A DNA stretch of 64,000 bases from an uncultured Planctomycetaceae bacterium (lineage in GTDB: Bacteria; Planctomycetota; Phycisphaerae; Sedimentisphaerales; UBA12454). Made by a program: the position numbers and the translations under genes. The notes under the pieces were generated by a model that ran no database searches, was not told the DNA's origin, and worked only from the letters and a program-made list of their open reading frames with translations. Of the stretch, positions 901 through 42,724 are shown in pieces. Numbering within the stretch: the first letter of the stretch is position 1; each line of letters opens with the position of its first letter. The DNA lies in the NCBI GenBank assembly GCA_964449435.1, contig CAYUYR010000008.1, positions 6,038-70,037 of the forward strand, in the 5' to 3' direction.

Positions 901-1524
901 ATGAAGACCGGCAAAAACCACAATAATCATAAAGACAAAATAGACGAGCAGGAGCTGCTTCATCGTTATGTTGCTGGCGACAGGGATGCTTTTCAGCAGC
1001 TTGTAAACCGATATAAAAACCCTCTTTATGCGTTTTTAAGACGTTTTTTGAATCAAACCCAGCTCATCGAGGAAGCCTTCCAGGAGACTTTTCTCCAGCT
1101 CTATCGCAGCCGAAAAACGTTTGAAAAAGACAGGCCGCTAATGCCCTGGCTGTTCACAATAGCCGCTAATAAGGCCAAAGACGCACTAAGAAAACAACAA
1201 AGACGCGATACTATCTCATTAGGCTCTATGACAGAGACCGAAGAATTCGGCGTAGATGACGTCCTGAACTCCCTAAAGTCTTATGATATAACACCTTACG
1301 ATGAGGCGGAAAGGGCAGAAAGGGCCGAAAAAGTACGCAAAATCATCGAAAATATGCCCGAAAATCTTAAAGAAATCCTCATTTTGGCCTATTTTGAACA
1401 ATTTTCTTACAAACAAATGGCGGAGATGTTGCGTATTCCAATAGGGACGGTGAAAAGCAGGCTCCACACGGCCATAGTTCACTTTACTAGAAAATGGAAA
1501 TCTTTGAACAACGAGATTATTTGA
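901..1524 (+). CDS. ECF-type RNA polymerase sigma-70 family factor
   Basis: 207 aa. Region 2 reads LVNRYKNPLYAFLRRFL...EEAFQETFLQLYRS...PWLFTIAANKAKDALRK. The region 4 HTH reads EILILAYFEQFSYKQMAEMLRIPIGTVKSRLHTAIVHF. Its stop overlaps the next start (TGATG). Confidence 0.9.
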   Translation: MKTGKNHNNHKDKIDEQELLHRYVAGDRDAFQQLVNRYKNPLYAFLRRFLNQTQLIEEAFQETFLQLYRSRKTFEKDRPLMPWLFTIAANKAKDALRKQQRRDTISLGSMTETEEFGVDDVLNSLKSYDITPYDEAERAERAEKVRKIIENMPENLKEILILAYFEQFSYKQMAEMLRIPIGTVKSRLHTAIVHFTRKWKSLNNEII

Positions 1525-2582
1525 TGGACAAACTTAACAAGGAGCAACGCGATATTCTACTCGATTACTACTTCGAGTGCGCAGGCCAGCAGGAAAGCGA
1601 AACAGCGAAAGAACTCCTCGAAACACATCAGGGCGCCATCGAATTCTACAACCGACTCAACCACTCGCTCTCTGCGCTGGAACACCTCGACCACGAAGTA
1701 TGCGCATCCTGTCCGGACCACCTCGTCGAAAAAACACTCGATAAACTCTACTCCCATACCGCTAAAACCGAACCGGTGAGCCAACTCGATAAACTCCTTC
1801 AGGCCGAAAGCGAAAAAGTTGTTACCAAACGGCCGAGCTTCTGGCGAAACTTCGCCGAGGCCGCAGCCGTCGCCGCAGGCGTTGTAATCCTCTCGAGTAT
1901 TTTCGTTCCCGTAACAAGACAAATGCGGGCTATGGCCTGGCAGGCAGCCTGTCAGTCAAACCTTGCCAAAATCGCGCAAGGCATAACCAGATACGCAAAC
2001 GACAACAGCAACTCACTGCCCGCAGTCGCTGCAAAAGCCGGAAACCCGTGGTGGAAGGTCGGCTCGACCCAACCGCAACATCAGTCCAATACGAGACACG
2101 TATGGGTGCTCGTTAAAAACAATTACGCCGAGCCGAAACTGTTCGTATGCCCCGGCGGGACAAGAGAAAAACTGCCGATGCTCGACAAGGCACAAATCGC
2201 AAACCTCGCCGATTTTCCGAACAGAAGATATATAACGTACAGCTTTAAACTTATCAGCGAACCAAATAAGGCAAAATACCCGTTAAGCGCAGCGCCTCTG
2301 ATGTCGGATACCAATCCGATTTTCGAGACCTGCCTGCAGAACCCCGGCTGCGTCGATAAAAATGAATTCGACCCGATTACACTTAGCGAAAAATTACTGA
2401 AAATCAACAGCACAAGCCATCGCGGCAGAGGCCAGAACGTTATGTTCAGCGACGGCGCGGTCAGATTCACATCGCAAAGAGTCATCGGCTCAGACGACGA
2501 TATATTTACCGTAAAAGACAGAAAGGTCTATCGCGGCACAGAAACAACAAGCAGCGAATCCGATATTTTCCTCGTTCCGTGA
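1524..2582 (+). CDS. Putative anti-sigma factor fused to a DUF1559 (H-X9-DG, pseudopilin-like) extracytoplasmic domain
   Basis: The ATG at 1524 is translationally coupled to the sigma gene. The N-terminal domain carries a HEVCASCPDH Cys/His motif. One TM helix follows (FWRNFAEAAAVAAGVVILSSIFVPV). The C-terminal body ends in SHRGRGQNVMFSDGAVRF, an H-X10-DG variant of the DUF1559 signature. Confidence 0.7.
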   Translation: MDKLNKEQRDILLDYYFECAGQQESETAKELLETHQGAIEFYNRLNHSLSALEHLDHEVCASCPDHLVEKTLDKLYSHTAKTEPVSQLDKLLQAESEKVVTKRPSFWRNFAEAAAVAAGVVILSSIFVPVTRQMRAMAWQAACQSNLAKIAQGITRYANDNSNSLPAVAAKAGNPWWKVGSTQPQHQSNTRHVWVLVKNNYAEPKLFVCPGGTREKLPMLDKAQIANLADFPNRRYITYSFKLISEPNKAKYPLSAAPLMSDTNPIFETCLQNPGCVDKNEFDPITLSEKLLKINSTSHRGRGQNVMFSDGAVRFTSQRVIGSDDDIFTVKDRKVYRGTETTSSESDIFLVP

Positions 2583-2734: not shown

Positions 2735-2768
2735 AAAAATCAAACATTTAACAGGAGAAAATGAAAGT

Positions 2769-3695
2769 TTAATTCATAACAGTATCATATAAGTTATCAA
2801 GTTGCTTTTTATGTTTGACTGATAACCCTGAAACCGTCCATATGATTCGTTGATACATATTACTAAATCGAGGTCTTTGAGAAGGTATATCAATAAGGGT
2901 TGAAGTTGATACAACCACTGATATAATCCGGCTTTTCGAAAAATACTTTTCAAAATGCCTACTGTGTTTATTAAGAAATTTATCATTATTTTTTTGTATT
3001 ATTTCAGCTGCGATATTGGTGTTTCCGGCCTTTAAGACCATATTCTCTGGAAGAAGTTCATCAATATTTATCGCCACGATTCCGAATTCAAATCCTTTTT
3101 CTATCTGACCAACTCCTTCGGATAAAACGTTTTGGACATGTTTTTCTGAATATAATTTCTTACAAGCAATTGCAATATGAGAATCATTGTAATCTATCGT
3201 AACATCTGGTTCTTCCAACTTTACATTCTCAGTTTTTTCTCGAAGCCATGACCAAACTTCCAGTTCCCATAAGAAACTTTTAGCTTCAGACTTCTCTCTT
3301 TTAAAGAAATCAAGAGTGCCTGAAAGTAGTTTTTTGAGATATAGACATTGAGTTTGTTGGTCCTCATTTTGTAAAGGTAAAATTGCCTTTGCAACTCGGT
3401 CCAAATGAAGACAAAGAAAGAAGTTATTCCGCGAGTACTGTTTCCCTGATAATTGGAGTTCCCAACAATTTTTGGTATTTTGAATCATATGAGCAAGCTC
3501 AGACTCTGACTGCAAAACAATGTTTGCTTTTTTATAGAGATTTTCAATTTCAACAGCTTTATCTTTAAGTTTTTGAAAATCGGAAACTTCTGTATTGGCA
3601 GCACTATCGGTCACCCAGCCAGCAGGCACTAAAATTCCTGACGGTCGAATATTCCAAATTTTTTTAACTTGCTTCAATGCTAAAATAACTTTCAT
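2769..3695 (-). CDS. Hypothetical protein (308 aa), no family recognised; weak PD-(D/E)xK-like stretch
   Basis: The ORF is open 2769..3782. The ATG at 3695 (MKVILALKQ) is the first start downstream of the promoter module at 3738-3780. AT-rich. The segment FLWELEVWSWLREKTENVKLEEPDVTIDYNDSHIAIACKK resembles a nuclease core (E...PD...xCK) but lacks the acidic residue of ExK. Confidence 0.7.
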   Translation of the reverse strand: MKVILALKQVKKIWNIRPSGILVPAGWVTDSAANTEVSDFQKLKDKAVEIENLYKKANIVLQSESELAHMIQNTKNCWELQLSGKQYSRNNFFLCLHLDRVAKAILPLQNEDQQTQCLYLKKLLSGTLDFFKREKSEAKSFLWELEVWSWLREKTENVKLEEPDVTIDYNDSHIAIACKKLYSEKHVQNVLSEGVGQIEKGFEFGIVAINIDELLPENMVLKAGNTNIAAEIIQKNNDKFLNKHSRHFEKYFSKSRIISVVVSTSTLIDIPSQRPRFSNMYQRIIWTVSGLSVKHKKQLDNLYDTVMN

Positions 3696-3737
3696 TAAGG
3701 TCTTACTGAAATTATATGTTAACTTTGGGGGATGGGC

Positions 3738-3780
3738 AAAATTATATCTTTTTTTGTTTTTAAAATCAATGGGGAAAAAC
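3738..3780 (-). promoter_or_regulatory. 43-bp promoter module, copy 1 (TTGATT-N17-TATAAT)
   Basis: On the minus strand the -35 TTGATT lies at 3769..3764, the -10 TATAAT at 3746..3741, and the spacer is 17 nt. 41 of 43 positions are identical to 4647-4690. Confidence 0.7.
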
Positions 3781-3811
3781 ACGGAACGAACCCGCCAGCA
3801 GGCAGGCGGGG
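3775..3811 (-). terminator. Hairpin plus T-rich tract downstream of the Abi_C gene
   Basis: The minus strand has cccgcc-tgcctgct-ggcggg followed by ttcgttccgtgttttt. Confidence 0.4.
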
Positions 3812-3881: not shown

Positions 3882-4631
3882 CTATTTACTTCTTTTTTGT
3901 TCCCAAGTTGCTAAAATAAATGTTGCCATTGTTCCTGCTAAATTTACGGCCAATTCAGCATGTCGAGGTAATGGACGAACTGCGACTTTGCTACTCGCAT
4001 GCGCATCACTCAATTTGTTTCTTAAGGAACCTAATCCCTCTATAATTGAATGACATCCACCAAGAATTTGTTTAAACAATCGCTCTGTATGCTGGCTTGG
4101 AGAAAGATTAAGATGATGAGCAACAAGGCTATACAATTTTGGCAAATCGTCTTTGTCCTGATAGGTAATATTACTTTCATCCAGTACATGTTTACAAACA
4201 GCTTCTAGCAGCGTTCTGGCTGAAGTAATTGCACCCTCTGGGTCAGATATTCTTCTATCGAGAGCTTTCTTCCAAGCCATTTGTATAGATGCTGAATCAA
4301 CCGTAGTGAGTTTTTCACTATTCACACTATCGGATGGAGCATGCGAGGATTGCTCCAGAAAGGACAACACAGGATCAAATTGCGCACGTATAAATTCCCG
4401 GCGTTCATCGTAATGAGCAAATTTAGGCTTAATAAATCCCCAAAATTCATCAAGACTTCGACATGACTGGATAAAAATAGGTAATTTTTGATTTAATAAG
4501 GTATTGGCGATAAGTCTTCCTCTAATCTGTTTGTACTCAGCATCAGACGTATTTCCACCAGTTGCTCTTGCTATCAACATATTCTTGAGGCTTTCGACCT
4601 CCATCAATAAGTTTTCAATATCATCAGACAT
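3882..4631 (-). CDS. Abortive-infection-like protein with Abi_C-type C-terminal domain
   Basis: The C-terminal half matches the Abi_C pattern as I recall it: PEGAITSARTLLEAVCKHVL ... IIEGLGSLRNKLSDAHAS ... LPRHAELAVNLAGTMATFILATWE. ATG at 4631 (MSDDIENLL) is preferred as the start. The ORF track begins at TTG 4637. Confidence 0.8.
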   Translation of the reverse strand: MSDDIENLLMEVESLKNMLIARATGGNTSDAEYKQIRGRLIANTLLNQKLPIFIQSCRSLDEFWGFIKPKFAHYDERREFIRAQFDPVLSFLEQSSHAPSDSVNSEKLTTVDSASIQMAWKKALDRRISDPEGAITSARTLLEAVCKHVLDESNITYQDKDDLPKLYSLVAHHLNLSPSQHTERLFKQILGGCHSIIEGLGSLRNKLSDAHASSKVAVRPLPRHAELAVNLAGTMATFILATWEQKRSK

Positions 4632-4646
4632 TGCCAATATTCCTAA

Positions 4647-4690
4647 AAAATTATATCTCTTTTTGTTTTCAAAATCAATGGGGAAAAAAC
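4647..4690 (-). promoter_or_regulatory. 43-bp promoter module, copy 2 (TTGATT-N17-TATAAT)
   Basis: On the minus strand the -35 TTGATT lies at 4678..4673, the -10 TATAAT at 4655..4650, and the spacer is 17 nt. The ATG at 4631 is only about 12 nt from the expected transcription start. Confidence 0.7.
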
Positions 4691-4714
4691 GTGGATTCCC
4701 GCTTCCGCGGGAAT
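4684..4714 (-). terminator. Terminator-like hairpin (8-bp stem, GGAA loop, T-run)
   Basis: The minus strand reads attcccgc-ggaa-gcgggaat followed by ccacgtttttt. It abuts promoter module copy 2. Confidence 0.5.
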
Positions 4715-4848
4715 GACGGACCCTGCCATTGTAATGGCGGGGCTAACCACGAATAGCGGAAAATGTGGAAAAGGCAATAAAAATTGATAGATTCTTCACT
4801 GCGCTGCGCTCCGTTCAGAATGACAATGAGTACGTATATGCGGGATAG

Positions 4849-5534: not shown

Positions 5535-6657
5535 TTAGGACTTTTGTCTGTGTTTTTTCTCTGCTCTGTATTGCAGGTAGCTGTCTATAAATTCCTCGAT
5601 GTCGCCGTCAAGGACGGCATCAACTTTTCCGGTCTGGCAGTCAGTTCGATGGTCTTTTACCAACTGGTAAGGCTGAAGGACGTAGCTGCGAATCTGATTT
5701 CCCCATGCGATTTCGCCTTTTGCGCCGTAAAGTTTCGCAACTTCGGCGTCGCGCTTCTGCTGCTCCAACATATACAATTTAGCCTTTAACATTTTGAATG
5801 CTTCGGCCTTGTTGCGGTGCTGCGAGCGGTCGCTTTGGCACTGGGTAACAATTCCGGTAGGCGCGTGGGTGATGCGGACGGCTGAACTTGTTTTGTTGAC
5901 GTGCTGGCCGCCTGCGCCGCCTGCACGGTAAAAATCGATTCGCAAATCCTTTTCGTCAATTTCGATATCTATGTCTTCATCGTATTCGGGCAAACAATCA
6001 ACGGCGGCAAAACTCGTATGGCGTCTTTTGTTGGCATCGAAAGGACTGATTCTGACGAGACGATGGACGCCTGCCTCACAGGAAAGTTTGCCGAAAGCAA
6101 AGGGGCCGGCGACTTTGAGCGTAACGGAACGCAGGCCCGCCTCTTCGCCGGGGGTCATATCAAGCTCTTCGTAAGTGAATTTGTTCTGCTGGAAAAATCT
6201 GGTGTACATCCGCAGGAGCATACTGACCCAGTCGCAGCTTTCCGTACCGCCTGCGCCGGCGTGGATACTGAAAAAGCAATTTTTCGTATCGTCGGGGCCG
6301 CTGAGCAGGCCCGTAAGCTCGATTCGGGCACAATCTTTTTCAAGCCGGATAAGCTCCTGCTCGGAATCGGCGATGATTTGTGCGTCATTTTCGGCAAGGG
6401 CCACCTCAAAAAGCTCGGCGAGGTCGGTGATTTTCTTTTCTGCATCTATTACAGGCTCAATAACGGCTTTTAATGCGCTGAGCCTGGAGACGACCGGTTT
6501 TGCGGAGTCGGGATTATCCCAAAAACCCTGATGAGACATCTGCTCCTGGAGGTTTTGCCTATCGGCGAGTTTGCCGGACAAGTCAAAGCCAGTCCCGGAT
6601 TTTTGTTATCCGGGCCCTGAGGTCGTTAATTCTCTGCTTAAGCTGGGCTAATTCCAT
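5535..6657 (-). CDS. prfB: Peptide chain release factor 2, expressed via programmed +1 frameshift
   Basis: ATG at 6657 opens 24 codons (MELAQLKQRINDLRARITKIRDWL) that end at CTT TGA C. The +1 frame then continues DLSGKLADRQ... into ORF 5535..6581, which carries SPF (SPFDANKRRHTSFA) and GGQ (AGGAGGQHVNKT) motifs. Confidence 0.95.
6582..6588 (-). other. RF2 autoregulatory +1 frameshift site CTT TGA C
   Basis: The minus-strand heptamer cttTGAc contains the in-frame stop at 6585..6583, which is codon 25 from the ATG at 6657. Confidence 0.9.
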
Positions 6658-33657: not shown

Positions 33658-33889
33658 CAGCAGACTGTTTGGGGCTCAAGGAAGAGGTACACTCTGCCGT
33701 TTTAGCCGGCACAACGGACAGTCGGTATATAGGCGGACAGAGTTTGCAAAACAGACTATTTTTGAAACGACTCAGCCTGATTAAATAAAAGTAGTGCGCT
33801 TAAAGTGTATAATTTTTTTGGAAAGAATTATGACCGGAACAGATAAAAAGGAAACCTGCCTAAATTTGTCAGGACGGAGCAAATTTGCT

Positions 33890-36800
33890 ATGAATAAGAA
33901 ACTTATCTTCAGTCTCGTATTAACCCTTCTATTAACCACAATCGGCTCATCAGCCACCTTGAATGTACCCGGCGGTTATGCGACCATTCAGGCGGCGATT
34001 ACCGCTGCGGCTTCGGGCGATATCATCGAAGTTGCAGACGGAACATACACCGCAGCCGGATTTTACAATATCGATTTCGGCGGCAAGCTGGTTACTGTCC
34101 GCAACTCAAGCGGAGACCCGACGAAGTGTATAATCGACTGCCAAAACGTCTCCGGCAGGCGCGGATTTTATTTCCATAATTACGAAACTCCGGCCGCCAC
34201 AGTAGAAGGCATTACAATTAAAAACGCTAATGCAGGCGGTTTATATTACGGCGGCGCTATCGAATGCGAAGAGGCCTCGCCGACCATTTCAAATTGTATT
34301 ATCACCAATAACAGCGCAGCTTTCGGCGGCGCTATCGACTGTTTCAACGCTTCGCCAGTTATCAAAAATTGCATCATTACCAATAATACCGCCACTTATG
34401 ACGGCGGCGCAATAGAGTGCAGCTACGACTCCAATCCGCAAATTATAAACTGTCTCATCGCAAACAACACCGCAGGCTATTACGGCGGCGCTATCGACAT
34501 CTATGATTCTTCTTCGCCGACTATCACAAATTGTACTATCGCCGACAATACCGGCAGCGGCGGATTCGGAGGCGTTTATGCCGCTTCCGGCTCAAGCTCT
34601 ACGATTAAAAACTCTATCCTGTGGAACAACGGCGACGATATTTACGGGCCGACAACAGTAACATATTCCTGTATTCAGGACGGCGATGCGGGAACGGGAA
34701 ACATAAATACCGACCCGATGTTTAGAACGGGCCCGCTTGGCAATTATTATTTAAGCCAGATTTCCGCAGGCCAACTGGCCGACAGCAATTGCGTCAATGC
34801 CTGTACGGATTCGGTTGACGACATCTTCGGTCCTGCAAGTACATTCACCACCAGAACCGATAATCAGGCGGACATCGAAAAGGTGGATATGGGATTTCAT
34901 TATCCGGACGGCGGACCTGCCGCACAATGTAAATTGATTGCCGAAGCCGACCCAAGCGATGCCGGAACCGTAAACCCGAATCATCCGTCTCCCGGACAGG
35001 ATTATAAACAATTCAGCGAGATTGTCATACAGGCGACGCCAAACAGCGGCAACAAATTATTCCAATGGATTGATGCAAACACCGCCACGTATAATCCGGC
35101 GGATCCGGGCACATATAATACTACTTCCGGCATAAACGATACGATTACTATAACACTCAACGACGACAAAACAGTAATCGCCGAGTTCAGCACTGTAGCA
35201 ACATATAAACTTATCACTTATGTTATCGGCGACAACGGCGTAATTTCCGATGTCGACCCTAACGACCTGCCCGACCCCTGCGACTCGAGGGCTTATTTCA
35301 TACCGCAGGGTAATTCAGCCACTATAACCGCTCATCCCGATGCGGGATATGTAGTAAAACAATGGCTAAAGGGCGAGACAGCAACTTTCGATATCAACAA
35401 TCCGGACACTTACGAAGTTATTCCAGGCGCTCTCGGAAATACATACACAACAACTATCGATGCTAATACTACCATCACAGTCGAATTTAAGTATCAGGAA
35501 TATCTGCTTACCACCAGCGTTTACAATGGAAACGGCGCAATCAGTCCCAAACGCGGTTATTATCCGGCCGGAACAACCGTCGATCTAACGGCTGCTCCCG
35601 ATGACGGCTATAGAGTCCAGGCATGGGGCGGAGATGCGGCTAATAAGCCTGCATGGAACATTACGACAAACACTGTCGTGATGGACGGCCCCAAAGATGT
35701 TAATGTGGCATTCGAACTCGGACAAAACCAACTAATTCACGTTTTCGGCGATGTGAACGGCATACAGGAGGCTATTGATATCGCAAACAACGGCGACACT
35801 ATACAAATTCATCCCGGAACTTATACAGGAGTTCCAAGTGGTTTTCTGGTAAGCAAAGTTATTACTATTGTCGGCGACCCGGAAAATCCCGAAAATGTCG
35901 TCATAGATTGTGAAACCCAAGGTGGTACTAATCTCGGATTTATTCTCTCCGGCCAATCCGTCACCCTTAACGGCATTACTATAACAGGCGTCAGAAGCCC
36001 CTTGCCAATACCTTACGACAATTACGGCGGCGCAATTTATATCACAGGCAACCATACAGTCAAAAACTGTATTATAAGAAACGCTTTAGCTGAGATAAAT
36101 CCGACGACCGACGGGAGTGCCGGCGGCGACCCAGATGACCCCAATAATCCGGATGCTAATGGCGGCAACGGCGGCGACGGCGGCAGCGCAGGCGGTGCCG
36201 GCATATACGTTCATTCGGGAAATCCATATATTCAAAATGTATTGATTGAAGACTGCTGGGCCATCGGCGGAAACGCAGGAAACGGCGCTCCAGGTTATTC
36301 AGACCAAAACGACTACAACAGTGACGACCCAAACATCATTTATTACCCGCCCGGTATTGCAGGTTATGGCGGAGACGGAGGAGACGCATTTGGAGCAGGG
36401 ATTTACACTGAGGCAGGCAGTCCATATTTTATTAATGTAACTGTCAGAAACTGCGGCGTCCGTGCGGGCAACGGCGGAAACGGAGCAGATGGGTCGGCAG
36501 ATGCAAACGGCGGAGACGGAGGACTGCCGGGAAGAGCGGCAGGGGCGGGTATATACTGCGCAGCCGGTTCGGCATCGGTTTTTTCCAATTGCGTAATTGA
36601 AAACTGCATCGGATATGGCGGCCGCGGCGGAAACGGCGGAAACGCAGGACAATTACAACTGGAAGAACACCGCACGGGCGGTTACGGCGGACTTACCACA
36701 GAAACAGCAGCAGGACAGGGAGACATAAGAATGTACAGCACAAACGGCGGAGCCGTATTCTGTGATGACAATTCAAATCCCGTATTTGATGACTGTACCT

Positions 36801-39800
36801 TCAGAAGCAATATGACTTACGGAAGCATAAGCGGCGTTGGCGGACATCACCAACCGTCCAACACACAAGAAATGCCGCGCGAAAACTACCGCATGCCGAG
36901 TTTCGGTGCAGGAGTTTTCTGCTCAAGGAATACCGCAAGCACTTTCGATAACTGCTTGTTCGAAAACAACAAAACCGCGTATAATCAGGATTTCAACGAC
37001 CCCAATTACCTGGCGGCTGTAGGTCTGGCAGATATAAACGATTACGACGGCGAATACACAGGTCAGGGCGGCGGTTTGTGTCTGTGGTATGCGGCTTCTG
37101 CTGATATTATCGACTGCAATTTCAGTCAGAACTCCGCTCCTATCGGCGGCGGTATATATAGTCTCTGGACGGATTTATATATCACAAAATCCAATATACT
37201 AAATAACGACTCCCTTTCAGGCGGCGGCATCCTCGCGCTGGACAGCGTCGTTGAAATAATAGAATCATCGATAAAGGGCAATTCTGCCGGCACTCAAACC
37301 GGAACCGTAGAAAATACTGGGTACGCTTTGTTCGGCTCAGGCGGCGGCGTATATGCACTTTCATCGTTGATTGACATTAACGACACCGTCGTAACCGAAA
37401 ACTATGCAAGATTGACCGGCGGCGGTATTTGTCTTGACGGCGATACGATATTCGCACAAAAGCCCCTTATAAAGAACTGTCTGATTACGGCCAACACCGC
37501 AGCCGACTCAGGCGGCGGAATCGCTTCGACATATTTCGCCAGGCCGACAATTCAAAACTGTACGCTCGCGGACAACCTTGCAACCGGTGTGAACGGCAGA
37601 GGAGGAGGACTTTTCGGCTCTTATGAAAGCGATACGATTGCCAAAGACTCTATATTCTGGGACAACAGCGGTATTAACGGTTCGCAAATCGCCTTAAGCG
37701 ACGGCGGACTTTTTACCGATATGCCGGCAAGCCTTACAATCTCATACAGCGATATTGACTTGAGGCTGGTGTTTGCTTTGGATTCAATTACATCCAGCTC
37801 AGGAGGTTCCGGCTCAACCTCTGCCCTAATGATTATCGATGAACAAACCATTTATAATGAAATTAACTCATCAGGTTCGGCAACAGTTATTGTAAGTCTT
37901 GACGAACCAGTTGAAGCGCAAACTACAGATTGGTCTTCACCTGATTCGGTGAGCGACCTGCAAAATAAAATCGCAACATTGCAGGACCAGACGCTTTCGA
38001 TATTTACCCCTGACGAATTTACCCTGCGACATAAGCTTACGAACGTAGCGGTTTTCAGCGGTAAGGTAACAAATTCCGGTCTCAGCAAGCTGCTTGATGA
38101 TCCGACGGTTGCTCATATCGAACCGGTAAGAACCGTCCGGCCGATGCTTGCACAGGCTATTCCCTTGGCAAACGCACTTACTACACGGCCAACCTACAAT
38201 GGCCAGGAAGTATCTATCGCCATAGTTGATACGGGTGTAGATTACACTCATCCGAGACTTGGCGGCGGAACTTTCCCGAACAGCAAAATCATCGGCGGTT
38301 ATGATACGGGCAATAATGATGCCGACCCAATACCGGCGGGCGAAGCCCACGGTACAGCCTGTGCCGGTATCGCGGCAGGTCTGCTCGGAACCGTCGGAGA
38401 TTATATCGGCGGTGTCGCTTATGACGCAAAAATATATGCCCTAAAGGCAAGTTTTGACAACACAGATAATTTCTACAACGACGCCACACTGGCTGCATGG
38501 GATTGGTGTATAACACACAGAAACGACAACCCAGAAAATCCAATCAGGGTTATGAGTAATAGTTGGGGTCTTTACGACTATCCAATAGATAACGAGGCAG
38601 AGGCGGACGTACTTTCGCCGGCACATACCATAGCGGCACAAACCGCCGTTAATGCGGGCATAACTATTCTTGCCGCATCGGGCAATGACGGCTTCGCAGG
38701 CGATGGTATCTCCTGGCCGGCAGCAATGTCAAACATAATAAGCGTCGGCGCCGTGTATGACACGACAGATATGGTTGCCGAATATTCCAACACGGCAAAC
38801 ATTCTCGATATTCTCGCTCCTGCCGACCCTGTATATACCACCGATATTGTTGGTTCCGCCGGCTACAGTACCGGTGATTATTATCCATATTTCAACGGTA
38901 CAAGCTCCGCTTGTCCGTTTGCAGCAGGTGCAGTAGCAGCTCTGCAAAGTGCTGCAAAACAAATAACGGGCGACTACTTAACTCCTGTTCAGGTTAAATC
39001 TTTACTGGCTTCAAGCGGCGACCCTGTAACAGACACTAAGGTCACAATAACGAAGCCGAGAGTAAATCTCGGCACTGCAATCACTCTGCTTAATCAGATG
39101 GTACCCGTTCATACCGAAAGAAATTGCACAATAATTGGTATTCAAAAAGACGTAAACGATATGTGGACGGTTGCCGGCGGCAGTAATATATCCGAAGACC
39201 CGAATTTCATACCGGGCATCGGTTATTACTTAAGCCATACCGATACGATGCAAGTCTATACCAGCCCCTGTTTCGACATCGGCAGCACTCCGGCCGTAAA
39301 TCTCGGTCTTGACACTTACACAACCAGAGTTGACGGCTTTAAAGATACTGGAGGTGATGTTGACCTTGGTTATCACTATCTGCAAGGCATAGCCACACGT
39401 TATCAATTAACCGTGGAAATAAGCGACTCGGGCGGTGGAACTATCAAATCGCCTTGGCTGGCCGGCTATACCTATAACATTTACGCAGGGCAAATAATAA
39501 CTTTTGAGGCAGTCCCAGATGCCAACTATAAGGTGGTCAACTGGTTCATTGATGATGTGGGCCAGCAGACCAACAATAATAATTTTACCACAATAATGGA
39601 CAGAAACAGAAAAGTCTCCGTCAGCTTTGAGCCCGTTACTGATGAGACGTATCAGCCAATCAAGCTTTATGTGCCGACTCAATATCCGGATTTAGGCTCC
39701 GCTATCGACGCAGCACAAAACGGAGACCAAATTATTCTGGACACAGGCACATATAGCTGGAACGACAGTAATTTCGATTACACGACAATTTATATAAACG

Positions 39801-42724
39801 GCAAGAATATAACCATAAGAGGCACCGCTCCTGATGACCCCTGTGTTGTCGCTCAGACAGTTATTCTCGGCAACGGGTTCTCTATTTTCAACGTAGATAG
39901 AACCATGACTATCGAAGGAATCACGTTCCAGGATGCCCATTATTACGCAGGAAATGTCGATTGCGGTGTAGAATGGGCTCATAGCGAAGGCGGAGACGGT
40001 TATAACGGCTACAGCATTTTCGGCGGGGCAATGAGGCTCTATAACGCTTCGCCGACAATACGCAATTGCAGATTTGTCAACTGCTCGGCAACGGCAAGCG
40101 ACGGCTGCAACGGAAACGATACAGGCGATGGCGGCTGGGCAGGCTGGGCATATGGCGGAGCCATCGCTATTAACTCATTCAGCAATCCGCTCATTAAAAA
40201 CTGCGACTTTATAGATTGTTATGCACAGAGCGGAAACGGCGGCGACGGCGGAACTGGAAATCCCAACGGCCACGGAGGAAACTGGGGAGACAATACTTCA
40301 AGCAGATGGGACTTCGGACCTTATCAGCCATACTGGTATTACAGCGGCAAAGGTGGTGCGATATACTGCGGCAGCGGAAGCAAGCCGGTTATTGAGAACT
40401 GCTTCTTCTCTGGAAATAACACTTATAGCGGAACAAGCGGTTTGAGTAATATCGATGGTTGGCCCAATTACCACTACGCTATCCCTGCTTTCGGCGGAGC
40501 CGTCTATATCGCCAGAGGCAGCGAAACTAAAATCACAAACTGTATATTCAGCGATAACGAAGCGGATACCCGCGGCCAAATCGGCGACCCAAACACTACA
40601 GATGATTTCGTACTCTACAGCCCGATGGTAAGCTATGGCGGTGCGATTTGTATCGAAAATACGAGCGTCGAAGAAGCCGAGGACACGATTGGGCTTATCG
40701 AAAATAGTACATTCTTCAACAATCGCGCCTGCGCCGGCGGCGGCATTTATCAAAAAGAGGCAACGGCTCACATCATCGATAGTACTTTCGAGAGTTGTAC
40801 CGCTATGACAGGCGGAGCTATGGCGATGATTTCAAACAAGTCTGCCGTCGTCGATTGCGATTTCAGAAATAACAGTGCGATACAGCCGTCAGGTAAAGGC
40901 GGTGCGATATATTCGGAAAGCGATACGATGTTCTATGACTGCCTGATTGCAGCCAATAACGCGGCTGTGGCAGGCGGCGGAGCTTACTTCACAGGTGATT
41001 TCGAGCCTAATATGCATAACTGTCTTATTACAAACAATAACGCAAACAGAGACGGCGCCGGCATATCGGCCAACTGGAACACTGAACTTACAATTTCAAA
41101 CTGTACGCTCGCAAATAATACGATTTTAGGAACCGGCTTTGCCACCGGATACGGCGGCGGTTTAAGCTGTGCCTATGAAGCGTATGTAAAGGTGAACAAC
41201 AGTATTATGTGGAACAATAACGCTGAATATGGCTCGGAAATAGCAATCGGAAATATGTTCGAGGCTGCTGATAAATACGGAGCCCAAGTGGATGTTTCAT
41301 ACAGCGACATAAAAGACGGTCAGGCTGGCATATTTGCCGATACCGAAAACGGCTGTATTCTCAATTGGGACGCAGGCAACTTCAACGGCACAAGTTTGGA
41401 AAGCCCGCTATTCGTTATTGGGCCATGGGGCAACTTCTATCTTAGCCAAACCGCAACTCCGGACGCCAACCAGACAGTGGACAGCCCTTGCGTCGATGCG
41501 GGCTTTGGCTCTGCCATAGACAATAGTATGTATAAACATACTACAAGAACCGACCATATTATTGACGTTACAGATTCAAATGTTGATATGGGTTATCACT
41601 ATACACTGGTTGCCGACCTGCTCGGAGATTTTAATTTTGACGGTATTGTAACCTTTGAAGATTTCGGTCTGTTTATACTGTTCTGGCTGGACGACGGCTG
41701 CACTTTCCCATATTACTGTGCAGGTCGAGACCTGAATAAAGACGGCAGAGTGGATTTTGAAGATTTTGCTCTCTTTGCCGAGAACTACGGCAAGACGGAG
41801 ACTATTCCGCCAAGACCGAACCCAATGACATGGGCATTATCTCCTCGTTCGGCAGACTCGAACTCAATTACAATGACCGCGACCACGGCAATAGATAATT
41901 CAAGCCCGATTATCGAATACTATTTCGAGTGCACTTCCGGCGGCGGCAATAATCGCGGCTGGAACACAGACACAAGTTATACGGATACCGGCCTAACTCA
42001 TGGACAACTGTACGGTTATCGCGTTAAGGCCAGAGACGCCAAACATAACGAAACCGGCTGGAGTGTTATTGGTTACGCAGTGCCCGGCGACGATAGTACT
42101 CCGCCGGAACCAAACCCGATGACATGGGCAACGGCGCCTTACGCTACATCGAGCAGCTCGATTCGTATGATTGCGTCAACCGCCACAGACATTTCCGACG
42201 TCGAATATTACTTCGAGGAAACAAGCGGTAATCCGGATGGAACAACCAGCGGCTGGCAGGATAGTCCGATATATGAAGACTTCGGCCTTTCGCCGAGTAC
42301 TGAATATAGTTATAGAGTCAAAGCCCGCGATAAATCGCCTGCTCAGAATCAAACCGGCTACTCAGACATAGCATCAGCTATGACTGATGATGATGATGGT
42401 ACTGAGCCGACAGAAGATACTGTCCCGCCGGAACCTAATCCGAGCCAGTGGGAAAGCACGCCACTGGCTTACTATGACGGACAATTTTATTACCATACTA
42501 TGACCGCCATCGAAGCGACGGACGACAGTCTGCCTGTTTACTACTACTTCGAATGCACTGACGGTGCCGGCACAAGCAGCAATTGGCAGACAGACCCGAC
42601 CTATACAGCAGGGCCTTACCTTGTCGAGAACTACAGCGTGTATAGGGTCTGGACAAAAGACGCTCTGGGCAATACCGGCTCGCCATCGCCCAAATACGAC
42701 ACAAACGGGCAATTAGTTCCCTGA
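33890..42724 (+). CDS. Giant secreted multidomain protein (2944 aa): parallel beta-helix repeats, Ig-like repeats, subtilase S8 domain, dockerin-like repeats, 3 FN3-like modules
   Basis: Signal peptide MNKKLIFSLVLTLLLTTIGSSA (the in-frame ATG at 33830 is an alternative start). Dozens of PbH1-type rungs (NNSAAFGGAIDC..., NNTATYDGGAIEC...). See the sub-features for the other domains. A terminator follows. Confidence 0.9.
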   Translation: MNKKLIFSLVLTLLLTTIGSSATLNVPGGYATIQAAITAAASGDIIEVADGTYTAAGFYNIDFGGKLVTVRNSSGDPTKCIIDCQNVSGRRGFYFHNYETPAATVEGITIKNANAGGLYYGGAIECEEASPTISNCIITNNSAAFGGAIDCFNASPVIKNCIITNNTATYDGGAIECSYDSNPQIINCLIANNTAGYYGGAIDIYDSSSPTITNCTIADNTGSGGFGGVYAASGSSSTIKNSILWNNGDDIYGPTTVTYSCIQDGDAGTGNINTDPMFRTGPLGNYYLSQISAGQLADSNCVNACTDSVDDIFGPASTFTTRTDNQADIEKVDMGFHYPDGGPAAQCKLIAEADPSDAGTVNPNHPSPGQDYKQFSEIVIQATPNSGNKLFQWIDANTATYNPADPGTYNTTSGINDTITITLNDDKTVIAEFSTVATYKLITYVIGDNGVISDVDPNDLPDPCDSRAYFIPQGNSATITAHPDAGYVVKQWLKGETATFDINNPDTYEVIPGALGNTYTTTIDANTTITVEFKYQEYLLTTSVYNGNGAISPKRGYYPAGTTVDLTAAPDDGYRVQAWGGDAANKPAWNITTNTVVMDGPKDVNVAFELGQNQLIHVFGDVNGIQEAIDIANNGDTIQIHPGTYTGVPSGFLVSKVITIVGDPENPENVVIDCETQGGTNLGFILSGQSVTLNGITITGVRSPLPIPYDNYGGAIYITGNHTVKNCIIRNALAEINPTTDGSAGGDPDDPNNPDANGGNGGDGGSAGGAGIYVHSGNPYIQNVLIEDCWAIGGNAGNGAPGYSDQNDYNSDDPNIIYYPPGIAGYGGDGGDAFGAGIYTEAGSPYFINVTVRNCGVRAGNGGNGADGSADANGGDGGLPGRAAGAGIYCAAGSASVFSNCVIENCIGYGGRGGNGGNAGQLQLEEHRTGGYGGLTTETAAGQGDIRMYSTNGGAVFCDDNSNPVFDDCTFRSNMTYGSISGVGGHHQPSNTQEMPRENYRMPSFGAGVFCSRNTASTFDNCLFENNKTAYNQDFNDPNYLAAVGLADINDYDGEYTGQGGGLCLWYAASADIIDCNFSQNSAPIGGGIYSLWTDLYITKSNILNNDSLSGGGILALDSVVEIIESSIKGNSAGTQTGTVENTGYALFGSGGGVYALSSLIDINDTVVTENYARLTGGGICLDGDTIFAQKPLIKNCLITANTAADSGGGIASTYFARPTIQNCTLADNLATGVNGRGGGLFGSYESDTIAKDSIFWDNSGINGSQIALSDGGLFTDMPASLTISYSDIDLRLVFALDSITSSSGGSGSTSALMIIDEQTIYNEINSSGSATVIVSLDEPVEAQTTDWSSPDSVSDLQNKIATLQDQTLSIFTPDEFTLRHKLTNVAVFSGKVTNSGLSKLLDDPTVAHIEPVRTVRPMLAQAIPLANALTTRPTYNGQEVSIAIVDTGVDYTHPRLGGGTFPNSKIIGGYDTGNNDADPIPAGEAHGTACAGIAAGLLGTVGDYIGGVAYDAKIYALKASFDNTDNFYNDATLAAWDWCITHRNDNPENPIRVMSNSWGLYDYPIDNEAEADVLSPAHTIAAQTAVNAGITILAASGNDGFAGDGISWPAAMSNIISVGAVYDTTDMVAEYSNTANILDILAPADPVYTTDIVGSAGYSTGDYYPYFNGTSSACPFAAGAVAALQSAAKQITGDYLTPVQVKSLLASSGDPVTDTKVTITKPRVNLGTAITLLNQMVPVHTERNCTIIGIQKDVNDMWTVAGGSNISEDPNFIPGIGYYLSHTDTMQVYTSPCFDIGSTPAVNLGLDTYTTRVDGFKDTGGDVDLGYHYLQGIATRYQLTVEISDSGGGTIKSPWLAGYTYNIYAGQIITFEAVPDANYKVVNWFIDDVGQQTNNNNFTTIMDRNRKVSVSFEPVTDETYQPIKLYVPTQYPDLGSAIDAAQNGDQIILDTGTYSWNDSNFDYTTIYINGKNITIRGTAPDDPCVVAQTVILGNGFSIFNVDRTMTIEGITFQDAHYYAGNVDCGVEWAHSEGGDGYNGYSIFGGAMRLYNASPTIRNCRFVNCSATASDGCNGNDTGDGGWAGWAYGGAIAINSFSNPLIKNCDFIDCYAQSGNGGDGGTGNPNGHGGNWGDNTSSRWDFGPYQPYWYYSGKGGAIYCGSGSKPVIENCFFSGNNTYSGTSGLSNIDGWPNYHYAIPAFGGAVYIARGSETKITNCIFSDNEADTRGQIGDPNTTDDFVLYSPMVSYGGAICIENTSVEEAEDTIGLIENSTFFNNRACAGGGIYQKEATAHIIDSTFESCTAMTGGAMAMISNKSAVVDCDFRNNSAIQPSGKGGAIYSESDTMFYDCLIAANNAAVAGGGAYFTGDFEPNMHNCLITNNNANRDGAGISANWNTELTISNCTLANNTILGTGFATGYGGGLSCAYEAYVKVNNSIMWNNNAEYGSEIAIGNMFEAADKYGAQVDVSYSDIKDGQAGIFADTENGCILNWDAGNFNGTSLESPLFVIGPWGNFYLSQTATPDANQTVDSPCVDAGFGSAIDNSMYKHTTRTDHIIDVTDSNVDMGYHYTLVADLLGDFNFDGIVTFEDFGLFILFWLDDGCTFPYYCAGRDLNKDGRVDFEDFALFAENYGKTETIPPRPNPMTWALSPRSADSNSITMTATTAIDNSSPIIEYYFECTSGGGNNRGWNTDTSYTDTGLTHGQLYGYRVKARDAKHNETGWSVIGYAVPGDDSTPPEPNPMTWATAPYATSSSSIRMIASTATDISDVEYYFEETSGNPDGTTSGWQDSPIYEDFGLSPSTEYSYRVKARDKSPAQNQTGYSDIASAMTDDDDGTEPTEDTVPPEPNPSQWESTPLAYYDGQFYYHTMTAIEATDDSLPVYYYFECTDGAGTSSNWQTDPTYTAGPYLVENYSVYRVWTKDALGNTGSPSPKYDTNGQLVP
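38190..39070 (+). other. Subtilisin-like (S8) peptidase domain inside the giant ORF
   Basis: Catalytic triad context: AIVDTGVDYTHP (Asp codon 38228-38230), EAHGTACAGIAAG (His codon 38348-38350) and NGTSSACPFAAGAVAAL (Ser codon 38903-38905). Confidence 0.85.
41624..41792 (+). other. Dockerin-like double EF-hand repeat inside the giant ORF
   Basis: GDFNFDGIVTFEDFGLF and DLNKDGRVDFEDFALF are a duplicated Ca-binding D-x-N/D-x-D-G motif. Confidence 0.7.
41800..42700 (+). repeat. Three tandem FN3-like modules (coding repeat) at the C-terminus of the giant ORF
   Basis: Each module starts PP(R/E)PNP(MTW/SQW) and ends Y(G/S)YRVKARD or YRVWTKD. Confidence 0.75.

Follow-up and report, generated by a model that had tools for sequence, protein, structure and literature searches.

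A large unnamed family of mobile, solitary genes with a possible restriction-endonuclease-like core, represented beside an AbiJ-like gene in a Sedimentisphaerales genome

Active restriction endonucleases are known whose sites deviate from the PD-(D/E)xK motif. ThaI has Glu54 in the middle of a helix, Asp82 and a Ser91-x-Lys93 motif in which the S91A change has little effect; SxK is also found in EcoO109I and the Ecl18kI group, and Cfr10I is still active after Ser-to-Ala exchange (PMC3025569). In the CCGG family the motif is permuted to PD...K...D/E, and the Glu can be replaced by Gln, as in Kpn2I (PMC6344858). A comparison of another kind is offered by the CDC1 and CDC2 subdomains of the central domain of eukaryotic acetyl-CoA carboxylase (ACC), in which a six-stranded sheet with two long helices, between b3/b4 and b4/b5, follows a four-helix bundle, and for which no close structural homologues were found (PMC4833862). 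Here we describe a gene of 308 codons in a 64,000-nt stretch of DNA (the window: positions 6,038 to 70,037 of contig CAYUYR010000008.1, assembly GCA_964449435.1) from an uncultured member of the Sedimentisphaerales. We are confident that it belongs to a large, conserved and horizontally mobile gene family which has no partner gene, carries no name and is missing from the curated databases. The gene itself is as follows.

2769..3695, minus strand: coding sequence of the 308-amino-acid (308-aa) protein, stop codon included, ATG at 3695; member of an unannotated single-gene family of ~300 aa

The enclosing open reading frame (ORF) is 2769..3782 on the minus strand, and translation from the ATG at 3695 gives exactly 308 aa. 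An identical protein (P0001) is present in the public protein collection, which agrees with the initial annotation, a reading of the letters of the window that had placed a 308-aa protein at 2769-3695. The same annotation had called this the most AT-rich stretch of the window, and it is: the GC content of the gene is 33.8% against 46.8% for the window, and 0.2% of 927-nt segments are this low, every one of them overlapping the gene. Together with an AbiJ-like gene it lies in a 2-kb islet of low GC. Comparison with an 83% homolog (locus L001) gave a dN/dS of 0.13 at a dS of 0.64, and the gene is a real ORF under purifying selection. No paralogs of the protein are encoded within the window.

The protein had been described as an orphan, which it is not. 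A word-index search returned 179 relatives, the best 120 of them at E < 1e-58 and nearly all of 300-310 aa, and when 1.84 billion cluster representatives were searched exhaustively with a profile, 1,232 passed E<=1e-3 and 231 passed E<=1e-30; nearly all of the 1,232 representative clusters are again ~300 aa long. Every named relative from the profile search is a "hypothetical protein", and a Pfam domain is found in none. Scans of the 308-aa protein against Pfam, NCBIfam, PHROGs and PADLOC gave no usable family match, just as the initial annotation could assign no family, and without an entry in these databases annotation pipelines label every copy "hypothetical". A match to phrog_37555 (E 6e-4), present in one of 113 members, was treated as chance. 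Members are found in Sedimentisphaerales and Phycisphaerae, in Desulfobacterota-type lineages, in Anaerolineales, in Nitrospirota (including Ca. Manganitrophus), in Beta- and Gammaproteobacteria, in Zixibacteria and in Elusimicrobiales, and the family reaches at least seven phylum-level groups. Within these its distribution is patchy: a scan of 185,579 species representatives gave at least 37 loci, a lower bound because it used two peptide patterns only. Distant copies (24-28% identity) are carried in 21 plasmid records, 17 of them conjugative and mostly Pseudomonas megaplasmids.

The comparison with L001, which comes from a Sedimentisphaerales metagenome-assembled genome (MAG), shows how little DNA is shared along with the gene.

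2735..3740, minus strand: ~1-kb unit of the gene, 45 nt upstream and 34 nt downstream, 84% identical to L001 by blastn

The flanks outside this unit are unrelated to L001, where, not far from ileS, the gene has a Zn-ribbon gene on one side and a pseudopilin gene on the other. The neighbours of the gene in 94 loci, taken to three genes on either side and 415 in number, were compared by all-against-all BLAST, and no conserved partner gene was found in these loci; beyond the synteny of near-identical contigs, the only recurrent neighbours are tyrosine integrases (four loci) and generic sensor proteins. In 47 of 52 non-redundant loci the gene has a lower GC content than its flanks (mean difference -8.3 points, Wilcoxon p=1e-8), which supports the view that it behaves as a horizontally acquired accessory gene.

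A ~1-kb solo unit with sharp homology boundaries, found at unrelated sites in related genomes, with a strong GC deficit and in most loci no integrase nearby, could also be a selfish element, that is, a homing- or addiction-type endonuclease cassette that would persist by its own mobility and not by benefit to its host. Insertion beside housekeeping genes (mutS, recBC, recQ, ileS, rpsB, hisS/thyX and gltA are among those flanking family members) would also suit such an element. However, neither empty-site/filled-site pairs nor a target-site signature were found, and the strong conservation across at least seven phylum-level groups, with purifying selection, suggests that the carrier benefits. 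Free-standing homing endonucleases are known mainly from phages and organelles, and no copy of this family was found in the phage records searched; a phage origin of the gene was rejected for lack of any phage homolog. A selfish cassette is on balance distinctly unlikely.

Some of these flanking genes invite a further explanation, in which the protein would be a housekeeping nuclease of DNA repair or recombination acting alongside MutS, RecBCD, RecQ or Smr. The gene is found in four proteobacterial loci directly downstream, and on the same strand, of mutS (with a 2-bp gap), recC-recB, recQ or a gene for an Smr-domain protein (L025 5321-7990, L029 878-7863, L032 440-2296 and L041 6973-7926). 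In L025, L029 and L041, however, the GC content of the gene is 11-21 points under that of its flanks, and because of these deficits the gene is taken for an insertion and not an operon member. Furthermore, these are 4 of ~70 non-redundant loci, which is near chance expectation, and the distribution among the species representatives scanned is patchy. The adjacency may reflect an insertion-site preference or coincidence, and a repair role is the least probable of the explanations considered here.

The model of the full 308-aa protein, made with AlphaFold2 from a 36-sequence alignment, has a pLDDT of 89.3 and a pTM of 0.89, and a model of the C-terminal domain by itself has a pLDDT of 92.3. Secondary structure was assigned by DSSP, and conservation was counted over 113 family members reaching down to 22% identity. 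The parts of the protein and the residues discussed below are listed here.

3321..3695, minus strand: N-terminal region, residues 1-125; predicted beta-hairpin 9-34, then four helices 40-122
2772..3320, minus strand: C-terminal alpha/beta domain, residues 126-308, from the AlphaFold2 models
3156..3275, minus strand: motif stretch FLWELEVWSWLREKTENVKLEEPDVTIDYNDSHIAIACKK, residues 141-180, the WELE-PD-ACKK region
within 3156..3275, minus strand: W143, E144 (codon 3264-3266) and E146, in predicted helix 1
within 3156..3275, minus strand: P163-D164 (D codon 3204-3206), at the start of predicted strand 2
3156-3167, minus strand: A177-C178-K179-K180, in predicted strand 3
3060..3107, minus strand: further conserved residues of the putative site, Q197, G205, A208, N210 and D212
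3105-3107, minus strand: Q197, at the end of predicted helix 2, invariant
within 3060..3107, minus strand: G205, A208 and N210, on predicted strand 4
3060-3062, minus strand: D212, just past predicted strand 4; acidic in 109/113

The N-terminal region is the less conserved part (conservation 0.35, compared with 0.48 for the C-terminal part), and in the alignment its hairpin is absent from the distant plasmid-borne relatives. The elements of the C-terminal domain are helix 137-152, strands 158-161, 164-169 and 172-180, helix 184-199, strand 205-210, helix 226-253, strands 257-269 and 277-287, and helix 293-307. The first six of these are predicted to follow one another as alpha-beta-beta-beta-alpha-beta, the order of restriction-endonuclease-like proteins, and by DSSP this holds in both models, as a statement on the order of elements and not on the geometry of the sheet. 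E144 is predicted to be in the middle of helix 1, D164 to be the first residue of strand 2 and K179 to be on strand 3, so the order noted initially (a Glu in a helix, PD, then a strand with x-C-K) stands on the predicted secondary structure. In the register of the predicted hairpin D164 faces position 177, with K179 two residues beyond; as modelled, this is the canonical geometry with an alanine in the place of the acid.

The motif stretch picked out in the initial annotation is the best conserved part of the family. D164, C178, K179 and Q197 are invariant (113/113), and residue 144 is Glu in 112 members and Asp in the other one; P163, S136, K139, W143, S183, G205, A208, F240 and W286 are each retained in at least 94%. 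The helix-1 acid, the strand-2 Asp and the strand-3 Lys expected of a PD-(D/E)xK protein are therefore present throughout, E144 apart from its single Asp, and what is missing is the acid two residues before the Lys: position 177 is Ala in 105 members and Ser in 5, and is D or E in none. This alanine had been noted correctly, but to call the core "degenerate" on its account is misleading, for Ala in place of the acid is a fixed trait of the family and E144, D164, C178, K179 and Q197 are invariant or nearly so. The same residues are held in plasmid and isolate-genome copies at 21-28% identity. Because the fixed Ala177 is surrounded by strictly constrained polar residues, the arrangement looks like a working site and not like decay, and the combination E144...PD164...AxK179...Q197 brings together deviations that are each known from active enzymes. 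D212 is probably the relocated acid, since strand 4 adjoins strand 3 in the restriction-endonuclease-like fold on which this model-based assignment draws. It is unlikely, judging from the sequences, that the protein is an inactivated nuclease, as the residues are invariant down to 21% identity, dN/dS is 0.13 and active enzymes with Ser or Ala at this position are documented.

Other catalytic readings of the conserved residues (a PBP-like SxxK, a nitrilase E-K-C triad, a PLD HxK and a papain-like C-H-D triad) were rejected on motif order, on the lack of an invariant His or on fold. The E-K-C triad of nitrilases does not fit the family in its sequence order. No His is invariant in the family; H244 is present in 87 of the 113 members and H247 in 57.

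Membership of the nuclease fold was sought by several routes, and the searches returned sub-threshold likenesses to nucleases. Foldseek gave no match to the PDB below 1e-3; with the full model BamHI was found at E 0.054. Among the top 50 matches of the C-terminal domain by itself are nine PD-(D/E)xK nucleases at E 0.13-0.5, also below threshold: BamHI (four chains), Hef (two), Hjc, XPF and lambda exonuclease. In the top 50 from BFVD, eight viral models are named as nucleases (restriction endonuclease, Vsr, 'endonuclease-like', DNA mismatch endonuclease, CDAN1-interacting nuclease and endodeoxyribonuclease I), at sub-threshold E of 0.025-1.3. Among known defence models, PADLOC gave only PDC-M15A repeatedly, in 9 of the 113 members with a best E of 9e-5 over ~48 of 260 model positions; the match spans the WELE...PD...CKK region. 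No mention of PDC-M15, and nothing relevant on AF2093/2PH7, was found in the literature searched. No member matched Shedu or Mrr in PADLOC, and neither DUF4263 nor Mrr_cat was found in the 113 members by Pfam at E<=1. Hjc (PF01870) was the sole member family compared profile to profile, with an alignment built from database proteins; hhalign placed E144, D164, A177-C178-K179 and strand 4 opposite E9, D33, E46-V47-K48 and strand 4 of Hjc. By Foldseek the Hjc structure 1gef superposes at 4.2 A root-mean-square deviation over 87 columns (E 0.28).

These results taken together make it slightly better than an even chance, in our view, that the protein is an enzyme of the restriction-endonuclease fold with a variant but functional site. 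Several of them weigh against that reading. The nuclease matches from Foldseek have E-values of 0.05 or worse, and PDB sequence searches with four different profiles gave no relative of solved structure. The Pfam scan of the 113 members gave no recurrent family, with Hjc in two of them at E 0.05. The hhalign comparison with Hjc has a probability < 1% (P=0.064), and 15 of 240 column-shuffled controls scored as high. Secondary structure is the sole basis for placing the conserved residues together in space. To our knowledge, known PD-(D/E)xK sites have no invariant Cys beside the Lys, and we know of no counterpart for Cys178, for the second Lys (CKK) or for the S136/K139 pair. As to the role of the protein, the lack of copies in phage records counts against a conflict effector, as does the fact that most loci have housekeeping neighbours and a minority have adjacent defence genes.

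Furthermore, the top Foldseek neighbour of both the full and the domain model is not a nuclease but the central domain of eukaryotic ACC. The matches cover ~180/183 residues at E 3e-3 to 7e-3, with probabilities of 0.8-0.99 and a template modelling (TM) score on the query of 0.35-0.44, all below conventional thresholds; for the top matches E is 3e-3 and the probability 0.9-0.99. Alternatively, then, the C-terminal half may be a CDC-like alpha/beta domain and no nuclease, serving to bind a ligand or phosphate, as a scaffold, or for other chemistry at Cys178-Lys179. The published description of CDC1 and CDC2 gives the same element order and a four-helix bundle (PMC4833862), and the invariance of Cys178 (113/113) is left unexplained by the nuclease model. 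However, E is above 1e-3 and TM is < 0.5, the ACC domains are non-catalytic and have no equivalent set of acidic residues and Lys, and this reading leaves the E/D/K/Q pattern, held to 21% identity, unexplained; the family also has no invariant His. The nuclease core is itself contained in this strand-helix order, and one reading therefore does not exclude the other. We regard a non-nuclease as rather unlikely. That the C-terminal domain is a true homolog of CDC1/CDC2, the first in prokaryotes and one that links them to a restriction-endonuclease-like enzyme whose Glu/Asp/Cys-Lys/Gln centre is unusual, is very unlikely; were it so, a non-catalytic domain of a core eukaryotic enzyme would descend from a mobile bacterial nuclease-like protein. 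The resemblance to ACC could thus bear on the origin of the eukaryotic domain, though its support is weak. As for the check proposed initially, by profile search and by Foldseek on an AlphaFold model, it reached significance neither for the nuclease fold nor for a housekeeping family.

The genomic surroundings of some family members do include genes of defence and mobility. One locus (L013) has AbiEii, PIN and two integrases as neighbours, another (L135) a CAP12-type TIR gene and a third (L010) a helix-turn-helix gene and an M78 peptidase gene; rve and ISL3 transposases are neighbours in some loci. Near the plasmid homologs of Agrobacterium vaccinii pB19.1.4b (L052) and A. vitis pAvCG78a (L138) are TIR, DUF4238, VapC and an integrase in the former and PIN, VapC and an integrase in the latter. 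These two islands have in common a PHD/VapC toxin-antitoxin pair and a tyrosine integrase, and their adjacent cargo differs, which matches the pattern of defence islands whose cargo is exchangeable. As to the association with defence genes that the initial annotation had asked after, defence and mobile genes flank the gene in some loci; these are a minority, and no fixed partner was found in the 94 loci. Unannotated genes beside three homologs (L002 4712-5962, L005 4577-5695 and L013 3493-4260) have Rx4-6H motifs (RSEILH, RDLVVH and RNSFAFH) that recall HEPN. The idea that such upstream genes encode diverse HEPN proteins was dropped, since Pfam lends it no support and the proteins are not similar to one another; the motifs may be chance.

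A role of the protein as a defence or conflict effector is plausible, though less likely than not. The fuller proposal, in which the protein is a solo, ~1-kb mobile member of the family with a restriction-endonuclease-like core and a family-specific active nuclease site, acting as a conflict effector or for its own spread, is put forward as a tentative one that falls somewhat short of an even chance. According to this proposal the family would spread horizontally as a ~1-kb single-gene cassette. The C-terminal domain would have a PD-(D/E)xK-type core, with a putative site made of Glu144, Pro163-Asp164 and Ala177-Cys178-Lys179, together with Gln197 from helix 2 and, past strand 4, probably Asp212 in replacement of the lost acid. 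We infer that such a protein would be an active, metal-dependent phosphodiesterase (nuclease) and not a dead one, and the variable N-terminal hairpin and helical bundle may govern target choice or autoinhibition. With no fixed partner, it could act as a solo effector in conflict between host and mobile elements, in a modification-dependent or Shedu-like defence, or in its own spread.

In the window the gene has an Abi gene next to it, and the two are separated by a repeat and by promoter-like sites.

3882..4637, minus strand: gene for an AbiJ-like protein whose C-terminal domain is Abi_C, HEPN-type (Pfam PF14355, E 9.5e-21; PADLOC AbiJ, 3e-23)
3711..3739, minus strand: promoter-like site TTGCCC-17-TATAAT, 15 nt upstream of the ATG of the 308-aa gene
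3738..3779, minus strand: copy B of a 42-nt direct repeat, with TTGATT-17-TATAAT; a hairpin and T-run are ahead of it at 3781-3795
4647..4688, minus strand: copy A of the 42-nt direct repeat, with 2 mismatches, just upstream of the Abi_C gene; a repetitive extragenic palindromic (REP)-like hairpin is ahead of it at 4695-4714

The adjoining Abi gene had been recognised in the initial annotation, and the PF14355 match confirms it; the gene also matches phrog_23253 over its full length (E 1.5e-74), and its true start is probably the ATG at 4631 and not the TTG at 4637 given by the ORF finder. Partial homologs of its product (48.8% and 30.4% identity) are encoded by a phage contig from the human gut and by Escherichia phage ESSI2_ev040, where the annotation reads 'abortive infection family protein'. 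The 308-aa gene had also been credited with its own consensus promoter. Two such sites do exist: TTGCCC-17-TATAAT (3739-3711) is conserved in the locus of the 83% homolog, inside the shared DNA, and TTGATT-17-TATAAT (3769-3741, minus strand) lies inside copy B of the repeat. Matches to the promoter consensus are, however, no more frequent than expected, with 7 found against 7.0 in shuffles. The 42-nt repeat itself was given by none of 100 shuffles, and no further copies were found elsewhere in the 64 kb or in 13 related loci. No Rfam match to a structured RNA was obtained in the intergenic regions.

Read along the minus strand, the order is REP-like hairpin, copy A, Abi_C gene, hairpin and T-run, copy B, the gene's own promoter and the 308-aa gene, so that copies A and B bracket the Abi_C cassette and each comes after a hairpin with a T-run. 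The homology to L001 starts directly after copy B. Since it ends at the repeat, the Abi cassette appears to be a separate insertion bracketed by the repeat, and from the sequence the arrangement suggests that an insertion duplicated a target that carries a promoter. The simplest reading of this order is that two independent cassettes accreted here and that a strong promoter was duplicated meanwhile. Both genes, the 308-aa gene and the AbiJ-like HEPN gene, would then be driven by copies of one 42-nt promoter element, and they are probably co-expressed. A REP-like palindrome, GTCATTCCCGCGGAAGCGGGAATCC, lies upstream of the islet at 4693-4752 of the window, and similar copies are dispersed in the L001 contig (2783-2815, 3473-3505 and 9697-9731).

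Adjacency, a shared strand, low GC in both genes, the same 42-nt element ahead of each and Ala at the canonical acidic position would suit a dead nuclease fold that serves as sensor or adaptor in a two-gene system with the AbiJ-like HEPN protein. However, no relative of the window's Abi_C protein is present among the 415 neighbours from 94 other loci, within three genes of the gene, and the 83% homolog has none; the DNA shared with that homolog stops exactly at the 42-nt repeat. The other residues of catalytic type are invariant, and Ser or Ala at this position is compatible with activity in ThaI and Cfr10I (PMC3025569). Such a system is highly unlikely, and the family-wide data give no reason to suppose a joint function with Abi_C, contrary to the functional link that the initial annotation had implied. 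That annotation had further suggested a nuclease-like or inactivated-nuclease sensor or effector of undescribed type; the family is indeed undescribed and the motif was placed rightly, but with these residues invariant the inactivated option is unlikely, and an undescribed nuclease-like effector is what may still stand.

If the prediction of an active nuclease is true, a family of more than 1,000 clusters, carried on conjugative megaplasmids among other replicons, gains a function. A partner-less nuclease with the centre E...PD...A-C-K...Q would then be a new type of solo effector in the repertoire of defence and mobile elements, and its site a new active-site variant for the restriction-endonuclease fold.

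Three other features of the window lie outside the islet.

5535-6656, minus strand: prfB (release factor 2), with a classical programmed +1 frameshift; the ORF from the ATG at 6656 runs into CTT TGA C at ~6586-6580, and the reading goes on in the +1 frame through a long ORF, 5535-6581
33794-42724, plus strand: a single, very long ORF (2,976 aa)
901-2582, plus strand: a gene for an extracytoplasmic function (ECF) sigma factor, overlapping the beginning of a gene of 362 aa that weakly matches DUF1559 (SBP_bac_10), a family typical of Planctomycetota; together with the closest homolog being from Sedimentisphaerales, this suggests a Phycisphaerae/Sedimentisphaerales origin of the window

Among the described systems, the ACC domains CDC1/CDC2 share with the C-terminal domain of the 308-aa protein the order of elements (six strands and two long inserted helices) and the helical bundle ahead of it; they differ in being eukaryotic, non-catalytic and part of a 250-kDa enzyme, with no sequence similarity to the protein. 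The multi-gene candidate PDC-M15 differs from the family, which has no partner. Hjc has the same spacing of 15 residues between D and K, but the 308-aa protein is 2.5x longer; it has additional strands and helices as well as an N-terminal domain, and has the distribution and contexts of a mobile accessory gene. Shedu SduA (DUF4263) and the Type IV enzyme Mrr differ in sequence, neither DUF4263 nor Mrr_cat being matched, and most copies of the 308-aa family lie outside recognisable defence islands; like them, the protein would act alone, has a non-catalytic N-terminal region before the putative nuclease domain, moves horizontally and in some loci lies in a defence island. The nearest counterparts of the putative site are ThaI and the CCGG family (Cfr10I, NgoMIV and Kpn2I). 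The 308-aa family has no significant similarity to any member of these by sequence, profile or Foldseek; it has an invariant Cys at x, a second Lys (CKK), the conserved pair S136/K139 in helix 1 and Y182/S183, and it differs from them also in its N-terminal domain and in having no cognate methyltransferase. In common with them it has the predicted alpha-beta-beta-beta-alpha-beta core, in which helix 1 bears a conserved Glu at mid-length, strand 2 opens with an Asp that follows a Pro and strand 3 carries a Lys; where (D/E) would be expected there is a small residue that is not acidic, and the next helix has a conserved Gln or Glu.

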